From Podospora anserina (lineage: Eukaryota), in the NCBI GenBank assembly GCA_017654855.1, contig CM030334.1, positions 2,852,001-2,916,000 on the forward strand: a DNA stretch of 64,000 bases, given 5' to 3'. Each line of letters begins with the position of its first letter. Position 1 is the first letter of the stretch. Shown in pieces: positions 41,811 to 50,680 of this stretch. Below the pieces are notes generated by a model. The model saw nothing but the letters and a program-made list of their open reading frames with translations, searched no databases and was not told the origin of the DNA. Made by a program: the position numbers and the translations under genes.

Positions 41811-44800
41811 ATGATGCCCTCGGTCTTGCCATCACACCGGAAGCGGATGGCAACCGATGAATTACAGGAAGAACGCTCCATTCTACCGCCGCCGTCCGCT
41901 AGGGTTCCCCGGGGCCTGGTTGACAGTGACCGAAACCAGATCCTAGAACCTGCCGTTGCCAACGAGTGCGTACTTTTGCTGGTTTGATGTCTCAATAGAC
42001 TGTTTGCTGACAGTTGCCAGTGCCGTGGCAGAAACACCTCAGCGGACTTCCCTTGGACTATCGCAGGACCGTCAGTTAGTAATCCGGTCTTCGACAACCA
42101 ACAATGTAGTCAGCACGTATGTCCCACCCCGACGTCCAGCCAAACGGAGCGACTTCAGCATTGCCATCATCTGCGCGCTCCCATCAGAGGCCACTGCCGT
42201 GGACGCTGTCTTCGACGTCTACTGGGATGACAAGGGTCCACCTTACGACAAAGTTGCTGGTGATCCCAATGCGTATACCACCGGTGCCATTGGTCGTCAC
42301 AATGTTGTTCTCGCACAGATGTCAGAGATAGGGAAAGTAAGCTCTGCGGTGGTGGCATCCAACTGCAGGCACAGTTTCCCCAACATCAAGCTCGCACTTG
42401 TTGTGGGGGTCTGCGGCGGCGTCCCTTTTAGCTCTACAGACGATGTCAGCACAGAGATTATACTTGGCGATGTTATCATCAGTACTGGGATCATTCAGTA
42501 CGATTTGGGACGACAGTATGATGATCACTTCGAAATCAAGGCCGGGCTTTTGGATACTCTCCCCAGGCCCAGTCGAGAAGTACGCTCTTTTCTCTCGAAA
42601 CTGACGCTCCCGCGGCAGAGGAAGATGCTTGAAGAGGAAATGGCCAAGATCATGTCGGTCCTGTCTGCCCTGCCGGCCCAGTTGGGCCTGTCTACCCAAT
42701 ATCCAGGCGCAGCAAAGGACAAGCTTTATAAGGCAACCTACAGCCATATCCGCGAAAAGGAGTTGTGCGAGACCTGTGGGTGCGACGGCGAATTAGTGAC
42801 ACGCGAGAGGCTCGGTCATGAAACTCCGCATCCTATGGTTCACCTGGGTACCATGGCTTCAGGCGACAGCGTCGTGAAATCAGCAGCATATCGCGACAAG
42901 ATTGTGGCGGACTCGAAATTGAAATTGGAGGAGAACATCATAGGGTTCGAGATGGAAGGAGCAGGAGTTTGGGACACATTCCCTTGTGTTGTGATCAAGG
43001 CTGTCTGTGACTATGCGGACAGTCACAAGGCGAAAGGATGGCAGCCATACGCAGCTGCTACCGCCGCCGCGTGTATGAAAGCATTCTTGAAGAAATGGAC
43101 TCCTTCTCCTTCTCTTCAGGACGATACCTGTACGTAATAGTCTCATTAGCTTGCAATCTCTACATACTATCTCGGAAGTTGTCTCATGCGCATTTAGTTT
43201 CTGTTCCATACCCACGGAACAATAACTTCGTCGGTCGGTCAGATATTTTAGCGAAGCTACATCAACTGTCGTGCAACTCCACCTCACAGACTCGAGTTGC
43301 TCTCTGCGGTCTTGGGGGCATCGGGTAAGTTCAATTCGTTCATGCTGTTAATATCACCTAACACCTGACAGGAAAACACAAATTGCCATCGAGTTCACAT
43401 ATCGGATCCAGCGTACTTACCCCAACATATCAGTCTTTTGGGTTCACGCAAGCAACCACGAGCGGTTCCGTGAAGCATACACTGCTATCGCACAAAAATA
43501 CCGGATCCCCGGGCATGAAGATCCCAAAGCAGAGGTGCTGCCATTGGTAAAGAGCTGGTTAGAAAGCCAGGAGCGTGGTCAGTGGATCATGGCAATCGAT
43601 AATGCTGATGATCTGGAGCTTTTCAACAGCAATGGTAGATTGGGACGCTACCTTCCAGAGTGTGCGCACGGGACTATCCTCATCACCACAAAAAGCCTGC
43701 AGGTCGCCTTGAGACTAACCAAAGGAATGGCCTCGTCCGTTATTAGTATCGAAAAAATGGATGAAGTCGATACAGCCCAGTTGCTCTCAACACGGCTTGC
43801 AGGAATCGACACGATGCCCGGGGATTATGCAGGACTTTCTGCTCGGCTTGAGCATCTACCATTGGCACTGGTTCAGGCGGCTTCGTTCATCCAAGAGAAC
43901 AGTATCACGATCTCTCGATACATCCAACTCCTGGACGAGAGCGACGACGAGACTCTTATCAATCTACTTAGCAAAGACTGTGAAACGGATGGGAGAGACT
44001 CGGACACTCCTCGCGCAGTAGCAGAGGTTTGGATTATCTCTTTCAAGCAAATTCACAATCGGAACACCCTCGCAGGCGAGCTTCTTGCAATCATGAGTTT
44101 CCTCGATCGCCAGACCATTCCCTACGAATTTCTTTTCACGTACGCCAAAGACCACGGTGCAGGAGAGCTTCAGCTCATCGAGGCACTAGGGGTATTAAAA
44201 GCGTTTTCATTTGTCACTGAAGACAAAGACCAGAAATTTGATATCCATCGACTCGTGCATTTGGTCACTCGAAAATGGCTGGTTCAGAACGGCATAAAGC
44301 AAAAATTCGCCGAGCGGGCACTCTTGGTCGTGACTGTGTGTTTCCCGTGGGGGGAGTACAAGAATTGGACTATATGCAACGCATACCTCCCGCACACCAC
44401 TGCTGTGTTAAAACTAGGAGAAGACATTTCCTCAAGACAAGGAAAGCTGGCGAGAGCAAGCCTTCTTCATAATGCGGGCGCGCTTTTCTCTGGACGGGGA
44501 GATTTCCAGAGAGCGGCATTGTACCTGAAAGAAGTATGGGAGATCAGTCAAGCCCACTTGGGCGAAGAGCACCCAGGCACATTAACCAGTATGAACAACC
44601 TAGCATCAACATACCAGTCACAAGGCCGGTGGAAGGAGGCCGAATTACTACACCTGCAAGTACTGGAAACTGGAAAGAGGGTTCTAGGAGAAGAACATCC
44701 CCATACATTGGCTAGTATGCACAGCCTAGCATCAACATACCGGTCACAAAGCCGGTGGAAGGAGGCCGAATTACTACACCTGCAAGTACTGGAAACTGGA

Positions 44801-46882
44801 AAGAGGGTTCTAGGAGAAGAACATCCCCATATATTGGCTAGTATGCACAGCCTAGCATCAACATACCAGTCACAAGGCCGGTGGAAGGAGGCCGAATTAC
44901 TACAACTGCAAGTACTGGAAATTCGAAAGAGGGTTCTAGGAGAAGAGCACCCAGGCACAATAACCAGTATGAACAACCTAGCATCAACATACCAGTCACA
45001 AGGCCGGTGGAAGGAGGCCGAATTACTATACCTGCAAGTAGTGGAAATTCGAAAGAGGGTTCTAGGAGAAGAACATCCCGATACATTAAATAGTATGCAC
45101 AACCTAGCATCAACATACCAGTCACAAGGCCGGTGGAAGGAGGCCGAATTACTATACCTGCAAGTAGTGGAAATTCGAAAGAGGGTTCTAGGAGAAGAAC
45201 ATCCCGATACATTAAATAGTATGCACAACCTAACATCAACATACCAGTCACAAGGCCGGTGGAAGGAGGCCGAATTACTACAACTGCAAGTACTGGAAAT
45301 TCGAAAGAGGGTTCTAGGAAAAGAATATCCCGATACATTAAATAGTATGCACAACCTAGTATTAACATACCAGTCACAAGGCCGGTGGAAGGAGGCCGAA
45401 TTACTACACCTGCAAGTACTGGAAACTGGAAAGAGGGTTCTAGGAGAAGAACATCCCCATACATTGGCTAGTATGCACAGCCTAGCATCAACATACCAGT
45501 CACAAGGCCGGTGGAAGGAGGCCGAATTACTACACCTGCAAGTACTGGAAACTGGAAAGAGGGTTCTAGGAGAAGAACATCCCCATACATTGGCTAGTAT
45601 GCACAGCCTAGCATCAACATACCAGTCACAAGGCCGGTGGAAGGAGGCCGAATTACTACAACTGCAAGTACTGGAAATTCGAAAGAGGGTTCTAGGAAAA
45701 GAACATCCCGATACATTAAATAGTATGCACAACCTAGCATCAACATACCGGTCACAAAGCCGGTGGAAGGAGGCCGAATTACTACACCTGCAAGTACTGG
45801 AAATTCGAAAGAGGGTTCTAGGAGAAGAACATCCCCATACATTGGCTAGTATGCACAGCCTAGCATCAACATACCAGTCACAAGGCCGGTGGAAGGAGGC
45901 CGAATTACTACAACTGCAAGTAGTGGAAATTCGAAAGAGGGTTCTAGGAGAAGAGCACCCAGGCACAATAACCAGTATGAACAACCTAGCATCAACATAC
46001 CAGTCACAAGGCCGGTGGAAGGAGGCCGAATTACTATACCTGCAAGTAGTGGAAATTCGAAAGAGGGTTCTAGGAGAAGAACATCCCGATACATTAAATA
46101 GTATGCACAACCTAGCATCAACATACCGGTCACAAAGCCGGTGGAAGGAGGCCGAATTACTACACCTGCAAGTACTGGAAACTGGAAAGAGGGTTCTAGG
46201 AGAAGAACATCCCCATACATTGGCTAGTATGCACAGCCTAGCATCAACATACCGGTCACAAAGCCGGTGGAAGGAGGCCGAATTACTACACCTGCAAGTA
46301 GTGGAAATTCGAAAGAGGGTTCTAGGAGAAGAACATCCCGATACATTAAATAGTATGCACAACCTAGCATCAACATACCGGTCACAAAGCCGGTGGAAGG
46401 AGGCCGAATTACTACACCTGCAAGTACTGGAAACTGGAAAGAGGGTTCTAGGAGAAGAACATCCCCATATATTGGCTAGTATGCACAGCCTAGCATCAAC
46501 ATACCGGTCACAAAGCCGGTGGAAGGAGGCCGAATTACTACACCTGCAAGTACTGGAAACTGGAAAGAGGGTTCTAGGAGAAGAACATCCCCATACATTG
46601 GCTAGTATGCACAGCCTAGCATCAACATACCGGTCACAAAGCCGGTGGAAGGAGGCCGAATTACTACACCTGCAAGTAGTGGAAATTCGAAAGAGGGTTC
46701 TAGGAGAAGAGCACCCAGGCACAATAACCAGTATGAACAACCTAGCATCAACATACCAGTCACAAGGCCGGTGGAAGGAGGCCGAATTACTACAGTTGCA
46801 AGTAGTGGAAATTCGAAAGAGGGTTCTAGGAGAAGAACATCCCGATACATTAAATAGTATGCACAACCTGGCCTTAACTTGA
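41811..46882 (+). CDS. Fungal NLR-like STAND protein: PNP_UDP_1 (nucleoside phosphorylase) - NB-ARC - TPR repeats; stops at TGA 46880-46882 unless bypassed
   Basis: Start ATG 41811 or 41847; introns ~41966-42020, ~43130-43197 and ~43325-43371. PNP motifs IAIICALPSEA, GDPNAYTTGAIGRHNVV, LVVGVCGG, GFEMEGAG, IKAVCDYADSHK. P-loop GLGGIG/KT split by an intron; Walker B IDNADD; ILITT; LPLALVQA; IHRLVH (MHD-like); then kinesin-light-chain-type TPRs. Confidence 0.92.
44558..46882 (+). repeat. Tandem array of 18 complete + 1 partial 126-bp (42-aa) highly conserved TPR units
   Basis: LGEEHPxTLxSMxxLASTYxSQxRWKEAELLxLQVxExxKRV at exact 126-bp spacing (unit starts 44558+126n); most nucleotides identical between units. 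Confidence 0.97.
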
Positions 46883-47599
46883 AGGGGTCTGGGGCGGCCT
46901 AATGATGCGTTAGAGCTGCTTGAAGAATGCCTTTGTCTGAGAGAGAAAGTGCTTGGGTTAGATCATCATGGGACCATTAACACACAAGCGGAAATAGCTT
47001 GGTCATATATGGAGCAAGGTCGATTACCTGAGGCTGAAAGAATACAAGCGGGAATGCTAGGAAAGCGGAAAAGGATATTGGGAGAAGAGCATCTTCACAC
47101 GCTGATCAGCATGATTAACCTCGCACATACTTGGAAGGTCATGGGTCGCCTTGAGGCAGCTGTAGAGTTGATGCAGGAGTGTGTTCGCCTCCGTCAGAAG
47201 GTCTTGGGCTCGGATCATCCCGATACCGTCGAAAGTTTGTCGGCACTGGAAGAATGGCAGGATTTGAGAGGCGAAGGCGGTGGCAACGGGAACACACACG
47301 GCAATTCTGAGGCAAACACTGCAATGAAGAGCGGTGAGAACGCCGGTGGGAGCAGCAGTCACCACGAAGACGTCGATAACGGCACGGATGACGATGCTGG
47401 TTACGAGGGCAACGAGAACGGGAACAACAAGGCTGGCCAGAGCTCAGAATCTCAGCAATGTCAGGCCACCAGGGGCGGGGATGAGAAAGGCAACATCGGG
47501 GACGGAATCCAAGATGGCGAGGGGCGGCGCAGCAGCGAAGATGGGAAGACAGTTGAGGCTGACGAAAGTGGATATGGGCCTAGGCCAGAACGTTTCTAG
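46883..47599 (+). other. In-frame continuation of the NLR beyond the TGA: divergent C-terminal TPRs plus a Gly/Asn/Asp/Glu-rich tail
   Basis: Same frame as the 43535 ORF (46949-43535 = 3414 = 3x1138). Reads ...NLALT*RGLGRPNDALELLEECLCLREKVLGLDHHGT...NLAHTWKVMGRLEAAVELMQECVRLRQKVLGSDHPDT. Confidence 0.85.
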
Positions 47600-48359: not shown

Positions 48360-50680
48360 CTAATACCCCTGCCCACCACTCCCACCCCCCGACCCAGAAA
48401 TCATCAAACCAGCCCTCTTCTGCCTAACAGCCATCTTCTCCTTCCACTCCCGTCCCAGAGCCCTACTCCGTTCCGCAGCCTGCTCCCTCGCCATCTTGGC
48501 CGCCTGCTCCCTCTCCTTCCTCTCCCTCTCCCTCTCCAAAGTAAAAGAATTATCCCTCTTGAAAATCTCCTTCCCCCTCATCTTCTGCTGCTGCACCTCC
48601 TCCTGGCTCACAGTAGTAGTAGTAGTGCTGCTCCTCTTCCCACTACTGCTAGCAGCAGAAGTGGCCGACATCCCCCTGCTAGAAGAACCCGCTCCCCCAG
48701 CAGAAGGAGCAGCAAGAGATGTCCGACCTCTAGTCGTCGTTGCCGTCGTGGTCGTCAGAGACACAGCCGCCGCTGACCGTGTCGAAGCAGCCACCGTGCT
48801 AGAAGCATACCCACCCCCAGTAACAGCAATGGAATGCCTCATTCTCGCCGCAGAAGCTGACGTAGGCGCAGTAGCAGTCGAGGTATGCGTCGGCGTCGTC
48901 GCCTGTCCCCCAGCCTCCATCCTAGCCTGCCTCGCCCGGCTAGTAGCCGTCTCCCGAACTGAATTTCCCCCACTGCTGCCAATAACACTCGCACGAATTG
49001 GTCTAGCCTTGAATTCCCTCCTCTTTTTCTCCTCCTCTTCTTGCGCCTTCAGCCGCGCCTCGCGTTCCTCCCTCTTCCGCCGTGAAATCGCCTCCCCAGG
49101 CAACTCAAACGTCGGACGTGTCAACGGCTTGCTAGACTTGGCATGCGGCTTGCTAGGCGAGAATTGCGCGGCAATAGCGGCAGCTTCTTCGGCAGAAACC
49201 TGCTGAGAGAGCCTCGCGGCGCGCTGTTCCTTCAGGCGACGGGCGACAGCCTCACCAGGGAGTTCAAAAGCCGGGACGGTGGGTGCTCTGCTACATTTCA
49301 CCGTGGCCTTGGGAGGCAGCAGACTAGAAGGACGGGCAATAGAGCGGCGGACTGTAGAGGTGTTGGCGGCGGTCTTGGAAGTAGAAGCAGGCTTGTCATC
49401 CTCCCTAGCCGATGACGCCGACGTCGACTTCCGGACCGACGAGCTGCGTTCAGCTGTGCTGCGTGTACGGGTAGTAGTGTGAGTAGTGGTAGTAGTAGAA
49501 GTCGACGCTTTAATAGTCGAGGCCCGTCTTGTCGACGTTGAGGGCTGCTGCTGAACAGGAGCCTCAGGAATAGACTCAAGAACCGGCTCGGTGGCCAACT
49601 CAGGGGAAACCACCCTTTCCAACTGAGCCACCTTATTAAGGGCCTCAAGTTCCTCCTCAAGCTTATCAAGTTCCTCAACCGAGTCCTCAATCCTCGAAAG
49701 CGGCCTAGCAGGCTGCGGCGACGGCAAAGGAGACAAGTGTTCCATGCCCATCAACGACTCATCAACCTTGATACTCAACACCGACTTTGGCCTCTCCTCC
49801 TGCCCCTCCGGCTGCAGATTCTCCTCCCCGCCCCTCAAAACAGTCGAGTTCTCCTCCTGCGAAACATTCCCAACAACACTGCTATCCGCCTCCTCCACAA
49901 CAACAGACTGCTCCACAGCAGACATCTCCTCTTCACTCTCCACCCGAGTAGCTAAAAGGGTATACCTGTTAGTGAGCGAGCCACCATGGTCGACAGAAGC
50001 GCCATCAGACTGCGTCCTGTTATGGATAAGGTTGCACCCAAACAAGACATTCTTCCCACCGCCGCCGCTGCCCAGATCGGGTTCTTGGTCTTCTCCGTCA
50101 TGGGAATCACCGAGAGACCGGTTTCCCACCCGGCGGCGCGACTTGCTGCGAAACGGGAGCGGAATCGTAAGAAGCCATTCGAACTGACCTTCCTGGTGCT
50201 TTCTTATCTGCTCCAAGTTGCTGGGGAGCCGGTGCTCGGCTTGGGCTAGGGGGTTGTTGTGCTTGAAGTCTACATCAACCAAGAATTAGCATTGACTCTG
50301 TAAAATGTCTCAAGACAGTGAAGCTCACCGTCAGAGGCAACAGTTGTCTCGCTTCCGTTGGTGGTGGCAGAAACCACACGGTGCTTGTCAAAAAAAGGAT
50401 GATCGTATTCAATGTTGTTGTCAACAGACAACCGAACCCTCCGGTCCTTGGCCTTGTGTCCCTGCTGACAATTGCCTTCCTTCGAAGAGTATTCAAGATG
50501 GAGGCTGCCCAGATCTCGGGCCAGAGAATCAATGTTGAGCGAGTTAAGATTGTGAATATCGCTCAGGACGGCGAACTTGTTGCCGGGTGGTAAGTTGGCC
50601 TTTTGCGAGAGATGGCTGTGGTCAGTGTGGATGTCAAAGTCGAGACTCGGCCGATGTCTCGAGGTGGTGGTGGCCATCAT
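48360..50680 (-). CDS. Coiled-coil protein with TPX2-like FKARP motif; putative microtubule-associated protein
   Basis: Two exons (intron ~50270-50328). Motifs SRIEDSVEELDKLEE, two FELPGEA repeats, EEEEKKRREFKARPIR and C-terminal AREQAAERSR coiled coil. Function is inferred. Confidence 0.65.

Follow-up and report, generated by a model that had tools for sequence, protein, structure and literature searches.

The 64-kb window analysed here (the whole 64,000-nucleotide stretch of Podospora anserina contig CM030334.1, assembly GCA_017654855.1, positions 2,852,001 to 2,916,000, read on the forward strand) contains a gene of the NOD-like receptor (NLR; NOD, nucleotide-binding oligomerization domain) type, whose sensor is built of a highly conserved array of tetratricopeptide repeats (TPR). 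Within the array, we observed a thin layer of transitions confined to CpA and CpT sites, which may be the footprint of light repeat-induced point mutation (RIP). The coding sequence (CDS) of the NLR is 5619 nt in length; it is split into four exons and contains a single internal stop. The PNP_UDP_1 domain at the N-terminus was identified by Pfam with an E-value of 7.6e-11 (42.3 bits against a cut-off of 25.1), and the TPR_10 match across the array reaches E = 2.6e-84 over five units. On the orthologous protein P0001, NB-ARC scores 19.8 bits, which is below the threshold of 23.5; the P-loop, GLGGIGKT, bridges the exon 3–4 junction, and relatives that are about 53% identical have PF00931 in their precomputed domain list. 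By its best protein matches, the gene belongs in the Podospora anserina species complex; over the NOD region, identity is 92% to the protein of Podospora pseudoanserina and 91% to that of P. bellae-mahoneyi. Because the locus tags of these best matches end in 308170, the gene reads as the orthologue of Pa_3_8170 and is very probably the same locus. In PMC13449251, Pa_3_8170 is named as an NLR of the PNP-UDP type whose two allelic classes are kept by balancing selection. The sequencing runs also split into two share classes for the locus, at 0.74–0.83 and 0.52–0.58.

The array was called by TRF at 44579–46869, with a period of 126, 18.2 copies, 92% matches and no indels, all within one long plus-strand frame. 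Units were numbered from 44579; the 18 full units span 2268 bp with a GC content of 0.47. Among the 126 columns of the unit, 27 vary, 19 of them by transition and 8 by transversion. The variable codons track the helix periodicity, falling at codons 3, 6/7, 10 and 13 and at codons 25, 28/29 and 32. The bulk of the amino-acid diversity lies in linked cassettes (columns 6/7/20, 38/46, 92/94 and 117–126), transversions included. Two-unit blocks are duplicated and the cassettes are shuffled among the units, indicating frequent recombination in the array. In the annotated proteins of sister species, P0001 and P0002, only 2–3 repeat units are present, reflecting either a true difference in repeat number or a collapse in their assemblies; P0001 also lacks the stretch between the repeats that match units 19 and 21 of the window.

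Table 1. Features of the NLR gene and its repeat array (window coordinates; col, column of the 126-bp unit).
Feature	Position	Strand	Basis
NLR gene: PNP_UDP_1 N-terminal domain, NB-ARC-type NOD, TPR_10 sensor	41811..47599	+	tblastn, splice sites, Pfam
Exons of the NLR gene	41811-41965, 42021-43129, 43198-43324, 43372-47599	+	tblastn with orthologue P0001, splice sites from sequence
Highly conserved TPR array: 18 units x 126 bp (42 aa each), 27 variable columns	44579..46846	+	TRF and unit table
Col 2 C>T, ACA>ATA (Thr>Ile), CpA>TpA, units 3 and 16	44832 (unit 3), 46470 (unit 16)	+	
Col 25 G>A, GCA>ACA, unit 6	45233	+	
Col 112 G>A, GAA>AAA (Glu>Lys), units 6 and 9	45320, 45698	+	
Col 118 C>T, CAT>TAT, unit 6	45326	+	
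Col 26 C>T, GCA>GTA, unit 7	45360	+	
Col 29 C>T, TCA>TTA, unit 7	45363	+	
Unit 18 CAG TTG for consensus CAC CTG: col 75 C>G, col 76 C>T, array singletons	46795..46796	+	
Five rare G:C>A:T letters, clustered (units 6-7): 45233 G>A, 45320 G>A, 45326 C>T, 45360 C>T, 45363 C>T	45233..45363	+	
In-frame TGA in partial 19th unit, codon 1634 of 1872	46880..46882	+	
Open stretch of 238 codons behind the TGA, with three TPR_10 repeats (degenerate) and a tail rich in Gly, Asn and Glu	46883..47599	+	Pfam TPR_10 E = 5.3e-30, 3 stretches

The preliminary description of this sequence had claimed that the rare unit variants are C>T or G>A transitions in RIP-like contexts, clustered in units 6–7. In our unit table, each change that it listed was found at its place, and the claim was borne out. 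Of the eight variant letters that are found in no more than 2 of the 18 units, seven are G:C>A:T changes at CpA (four) or CpT (three), and the remaining one is a C>G. The CAC>TAC change occurs in units 4, 5 and 12. When columns 46 and 73 are counted as well, the G:C>A:T changes against the consensus are nine in total, five at CpA and four at CpT. The 58 G:C positions of the consensus unit are made up of CpA (16), CpT (18), CpC (16) and CpG (8). Between 45229 and 45371, units 6–7 differ from their nearest copy, units 9–10, at four positions only (45233, 45326, 45360 and 45363), and all four differences are G:C>A:T. The C-terminal half of unit 9 is identical to that of unit 6 save at column 118. 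The orthologue P0001 carries Ile at the repeat position of ACA>ATA (in NILASMHSLAS), so this change has either been shared since long ago or arisen repeatedly.

With a transition bias (kappa) of 2–4, the probability that at least seven of the eight rare letters are strictly RIP-like is 5.7e-6 to 4.1e-5; it rises to 1.6e-4 to 7.6e-4 when a 2–3-fold AT bias is added. Across the array, G:C>A:T changes hit 9 of 34 CpA/CpT sites and 0 of 24 CpC/CpG sites (p = 0.005). The restriction was also seen at nonsynonymous sites alone (8/18 versus 0/14, p = 0.004) and within the variable codons alone (8/16 versus 0/7, p = 0.026). Five of the eight rare events fall inside 131 bp (permutation p = 0.0025); with the adjacent pair in unit 18 taken as one event, which leaves seven events, the p value is 0.0009.

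As a control from the same gene, we aligned 866 non-repeat residues with four orthologues and inferred single-nucleotide paths from the window codons. The 69 lineage-specific amino-acid differences gave 66 single-step changes, three multi-step ones having been dropped. Only 13 of the 66 are RIP-like, compared with seven of eight in the array (p = 2.9e-4), a comparison of fixed differences with within-array variants in which the control covers nonsynonymous changes only. The 32 G:C>A:T changes of the control fall at CpA (6), CpT (7), CpG (12) and CpC (7); thus 13/32 are RIP-like against 48.5% expected by opportunity (p = 0.38), and in the window lineage alone the count is 3/29. Since the non-repeat part shows no context preference, the CpA/CpT restriction is specific to the array. 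The excess of CpA/CpT transitions among inter-unit differences, whose lack the preliminary description would have counted as a refutation, is thus present, and it is absent from the non-repeat part of the gene. In the non-repeat CDS (41811–44578), 12 of the 32 G:C>A:T changes lie at CpG against 23% expected (p = 0.09), a slight surplus at CpG in a fungus whose DNA is reportedly methylated little or not at all.

G:C>A:T is the commonest class of mutation, and ordinary mutation, followed by selection and shuffling, could in principle have produced the same letters. According to this explanation, only changes at surface codons survive, those codons happen to offer CpA and CpT sites, and the patch in units 6–7 is a conversion tract from another allele or paralogue, or a chance cluster. 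The helix periodicity of the variable codons agrees with it, and in another Podospora TPR NLR the polymorphic sites lie on the concave face (PMC4986451). Within the variable codons there are only seven non-RIP G:C sites, three of which are synonymous and one stop-making, and under a 2–3-fold AT bias the probability of at least seven G:C>A:T changes among eight is 0.006–0.025. Several of the variant residues recur in orthologues and in other strains, and repeat exchange between TPR genes of the highly conserved (HIC) class has been reported (PMC13449251). However, the non-repeat domains, which share the same mutation process, have 19 of 32 G:C>A:T changes at CpG/CpC, compared with 0 of 9 in the array (p = 0.0017). 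That all four nearest-copy differences over 143 bp are G:C>A:T would also be unexpected of a normal donor tract, unless the donor itself had been mutated by RIP, and the clustering (p about 0.001–0.0025) likewise speaks against this explanation. We regard ordinary mutation as unlikely, though it is the rival to be taken most seriously.

The same cluster could come from mutagenesis associated with recombination, in which single-stranded cytosines at a break, or error-prone repair synthesis, would leave a local patch of transitions independently of RIP. The duplicated two-unit blocks and the shuffled cassettes attest the recombination that this requires; along the patch, G>A (45233, 45320) gives way to C>T (45326, 45360, 45363), as in strand-coordinated break damage, and repair-linked mutation has been raised as a possible source of such changes (PMC13449251). 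By our reasoning, however, two-sided 5'-to-3' resection should leave C>T to the left of the break and G>A to its right, which is the opposite of what is seen, and no reason is known why CpC and CpG should be avoided. With two plus three sites the strand pattern proves nothing either way, and we consider this origin very improbable.

We compared the letters at 45215–45380 with other strains, using three contig runs (X1, X6 and X7) and one raw-read run (X21). Logan contigs drop rare variants and X21 carries a visibly different array haplotype, so absence from these runs is weak evidence. In X21, nearly all unit starts of the TLNSMHN type belong to the edge unit (25 of about 28 reads), and codon 13 also occurs as Lys and Glu; in the X6 contig run, an Asn codon stands at repeat position 42. 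Further variable columns were seen in the other strains, namely column 37 (C>A and C>G), column 78 (G>A), column 82 (G>A) and column 95 (G>A, at CpG).

Several of the results from this comparison weigh against RIP as the source of the rare letters. The window letters at 45233, 45320 and 45326 occur in none of the four runs; in X21, the consensus letter is carried by 59/60, 76/76 and 26/26 reads at these positions, respectively. These three letters are private to this assembly and have no independent read support. TCA>TTA, by contrast, is also present in X7 (one contig) and X21 (4 of 63 reads), and the unit-18 letters are frequent in X21 (G at column 75 in 63 of 85 reads, T at column 76 in 40 of 85). 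TCA>TTA and CAG/TTG are therefore standing variation and not fresh changes, because they are found in other strains; for them, the word rare holds within this array but not at the species level. When the variants of the other strains are added, the test within variable codons weakens to 9/16 versus 1/7 (p = 0.077). Orthologues from other species, too, have Ile, Leu and Lys at these positions of the repeat. If the orthologue residue is taken as ancestral, Ile>Thr at column 92 and Asn>Ser at column 20 run the wrong way for RIP. The polarity of the changes leans on the assumption that rare letters are derived; the transition-to-transversion ratio of the array is ordinary (19 versus 8 columns). 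Selection confounds context, many CpC/CpG sites lying in conserved core codons. The cluster in units 6–7 mixes G>A with C>T, and the pattern, which was picked post hoc, comprises only 8–9 events. Outside the array, an excess of RIP-like changes was not found in the flanks: the 500 bp upstream hold six window-lineage changes, of which the one G:C>A:T is at CpG. Leakage of RIP into the flanks was accordingly rejected, there being no sign of it among the inferred window-lineage changes.

The absence of the three letters from all four runs also fits an error of assembly or polishing, since a repeat of this kind cannot be polished with short reads; such an error would concern the unit-6 letters at 45233, 45320 and 45326 and perhaps those of unit 7. 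X1 is one of the two best holders of the locus (share 0.83), and its 3, 5 and 4 contigs at the three positions, respectively, all have the consensus letter; errors also tend to cluster locally. Against this, contigs lose rare variants and X21 is of another haplotype, so the absence is weak; the A of 45320 appears twice in the window (units 6 and 9); the 2268-bp array is free of indels; and errors are unlikely to be confined to CpA/CpT. For the unit-7 letters, one X1 contig spans 45328–45379 with no alternative letter listed at 45360 or 45363, which may lend them support, although differences close to contig ends are not listed. In PMC12222747, a search for remarks on polishing or errors in such arrays hit the reference list only. 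We consider an assembly error improbable.

Three further lines of evidence, which the preliminary description put forward or, for the RIP indices, proposed as a check, proved to carry little weight. The first one is the RIP indices. In the array, TpA/ApT is 1.20 and (CpA+TpG)/(ApC+GpT) is 1.05; the corresponding values are 0.58 and 1.36 in the NB-ARC part, and the window means are 0.61 and 1.26. Outside the array, 229 windows of the same size were compared, and its TpA/ApT was attained by none. However, among 974 windows of 126 nt, 8.5% (TpA/ApT) and 14% (second index) are equally extreme. The array does differ from the NB-ARC part, but the difference reflects one 126-bp unit counted 18 times, so that the indices were rejected as decisive evidence. 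As a separate observation, the top TpA/ApT of the window (2.54) lies at 49201–49800, in GC-rich sequence (0.59) inside a Ser/Thr/Ala-rich open reading frame (ORF) without a Pfam match; it looks like a small-count artefact of the index and not like RIP.

The second line is the richness of the consensus in TpA codons. It is real: the consensus unit contains 10 TpA against 8 ApT, CTA, TTA and GTA make up 6 of its 9 Leu/Val codons compared with 31 of 177 in the rest of the gene (p = 0.002), and its GC content at third codon positions (GC3) is 0.40, versus 0.56. RIP explains it poorly, and an origin by RIP was not accepted. The third positions are strand-asymmetric (A at 19 and T at 6 of 42), two of the three synonymous differences between the consensus and the edge unit are transversions, and the low GC3 is common to TPR units 19 (0.43, mostly single-copy) and 20 (0.36, single-copy), which lie outside the 18-unit array.

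The third line is the absence of stop codons. It is true that no TGG, CAA or CAG codon has become a stop inside the 18 units, but a TGA stands in the partial 19th unit. Only 4 of the 34 RIP-like sites would create a stop, and the probability that nine changes produce none is 0.32 (0.32–0.42). Because so few sites can yield stops, their absence is uninformative, and the view that nonsense hits had been purged was rejected, chance alone predicting none.

The TGA, which the preliminary description did not mention, lies 34 bp past the last full unit. P0001 and P0003 carry Trp there, so the codon implies TGG>TGA; this G>A has a GpG context and, strictly defined, is not RIP-like. Its letters were found in 4/4 runs, within the loose ends of reads or contigs aligned to 166 bp of units 6–7 (25 reads in X21 and a single contig in each of the runs X1, X6 and X7). 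Because the same letters occur in all four runs, the TGA is widespread in the organism and is not a lesion of one strain. A short intron that excises the TGA was rejected: the sole candidate is 28 nt in length, and its 5' motif is present in every unit. Downstream of the TGA, the open tail stops where the orthologues stop (P0001 and P0002, compared by eye), and the usual His-Pro motif of its repeats reads HH and HL.

The surroundings of the gene are of housekeeping nature. In the Pfam scan, which covered 9 of the 18 listed ORFs of at least 220 aa within 30000–60000, the neighbours were identified as a Y-family polymerase, a bHLH protein, a carboxylesterase, shugoshin and exportin-1. In the whole 64-kb window, no repeat family other than the TPR array and no AT-rich relic were found; thus the window offers no positive control for RIP in the form of an AT-rich relic, other repeats or transposon ORFs, the last within the 9 of 18 ORFs scanned. 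An open frame of 804 codons runs through the array on the minus strand (44548–46962). It is a by-product of a repeated unit without stops in that frame, with no evidence for a gene.

The array itself goes beyond the rule for RIP substrates, which is 400 bp at 80% identity (PMC1805685): it contains 2268 bp of linked copies, and shifted 300-nt copies are 85–96% alike. RIP takes place before meiosis and requires a cytosine methyltransferase homologue of the RID type. In P. anserina it is reported to be active at low frequency, with unmethylated targets, and homozygous PaRid knock-out crosses are barren (PMC6709928). It prefers CpA and CpT (PMC13449251, citing Hamann 2000), and the HIC NLRs of the species complex are reported to be enriched in RIP-like polymorphisms, i.e. 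C>T or G>A at CpA/CpT, while one member of the complex has reportedly lost active RIP (PMC13449251).

We favour, with a probability of about 0.5, the reading that the thin and recent layer of CpA/CpT transitions is the footprint of light RIP. What was observed is the mutational spectrum with its restriction by context, the clustering, the difference from the non-repeat part, and an array that suits RIP as a substrate. RIP, and not another deamination process, would be the agent, and the rare letters would be derived. In this reading, the diversity of the array consists of two layers. The thick one is made of a few old linked cassettes at the surface positions of the two TPR helices, which unequal crossing-over or gene conversion reshuffles among the units. 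The thin one consists of G:C>A:T changes limited to CpA/CpT, including four private changes within 131 bp of units 6–7. The 2.27-kb array of linked copies, about 92% identical, may be recognised premeiotically as duplicated DNA, and a few of its cytosines would be deaminated. Later duplication or conversion may copy some changes (the Ile that units 3 and 16 share, and the Lys of both unit 6 and unit 9) or erase others, and selection at surface codons would decide which of them persist. The proposal of the preliminary description, that mild RIP serves as a mutator of the sensor, thus gains from the context, the clustering, the control and the substrate, but most of the diversity resides in old cassettes that include transversions, and some changes run the wrong way. 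RIP would be a minor supplier of variants and not the main source of repeat diversity.

More tentatively, the private G:C>A:T changes of units 6–7, four of them inside 131 bp, could stem from a single recent episode of light RIP in an intact array. If so, such arrays would trigger RIP on themselves continually and not only upon duplication of the whole gene; of the two extremes between which the 2007 work did not decide, this is the second (PMC1805685).

Fungal NLRs with near-identical sensor repeats are thought to gain new recognition specificities fast. That RIP acts as a built-in mutator of the sensor has been an open proposal since 2007: Paoletti et al. suggested that the WD40 arrays of Podospora NLRs trigger RIP and thereby feed their own diversification, found C>T at CpA to be raised at silent sites, and held that only experiments could settle the question (PMC1805685). 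Dyrka et al. 2014 repeated the proposal and extended the highly conserved repeats to TPR and ANK (PMC4986451), and according to a 2026 study, RIP-like polymorphisms are enriched in the HIC NLRs of the species complex, outside the sensor domains (PMC13449251). The present case is an instance of this known proposal and not a new kind of thing; the array adds a countable test locus. The name Pa_3_8170 was met in the literature only in PMC13449251 and its preprint, no search having been aimed at RIP-type counts within TPR arrays. As a small and clean example of a TPR sensor, the array combines tight clustering with a context restriction that is absent from the non-repeat part of the gene. It also warns against over-reading, since RIP indices of tandem arrays, the absence of stops and TpA-rich consensus codons carry little weight here.

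Among known systems, the closest are the WD40 arrays of the NWD/HNWD genes (het-d, het-e), which share with the present array a fungal NLR, conserved tandem sensor repeats, shuffling, surface diversity and more C>T at CpA. For them it was proposed that RIP is set off by the array itself and feeds its diversification, with a footprint that homogenisation and selection make less distinct (PMC1805685). Different from those genes, with WD40 repeats on NACHT/HET proteins, the array described here consists of 42-aa TPR_10 units on an NB-ARC/PNP_UDP protein; no paralogue turned into a pseudogene by RIP is in view, and the evidence comes from one 18-unit array and a partial view of four strains. The analysis of HIC NLRs in PMC13449251 removed most sensor domains, whereas the present count was made inside the sensor array. 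Long-read alleles of the locus have been published for 13 strains, and 1,024 TPR units are given for the NB-ARC genes as a whole (PMC13449251). Like RIP in Neurospora crassa, the changes are G:C>A:T only, prefer CpA, are clustered, and lie in linked repeats longer than 400 bp and more than 80% alike (PMC1805685, PMC6709928). Compared to that of Neurospora crassa, the present layer is far lighter: of the 58 G:C positions in a unit, about nine columns are mutated, most of them in one unit only; CpT is changed as often as CpA, and the gene is open with no AT-rich decay (GC 0.47).

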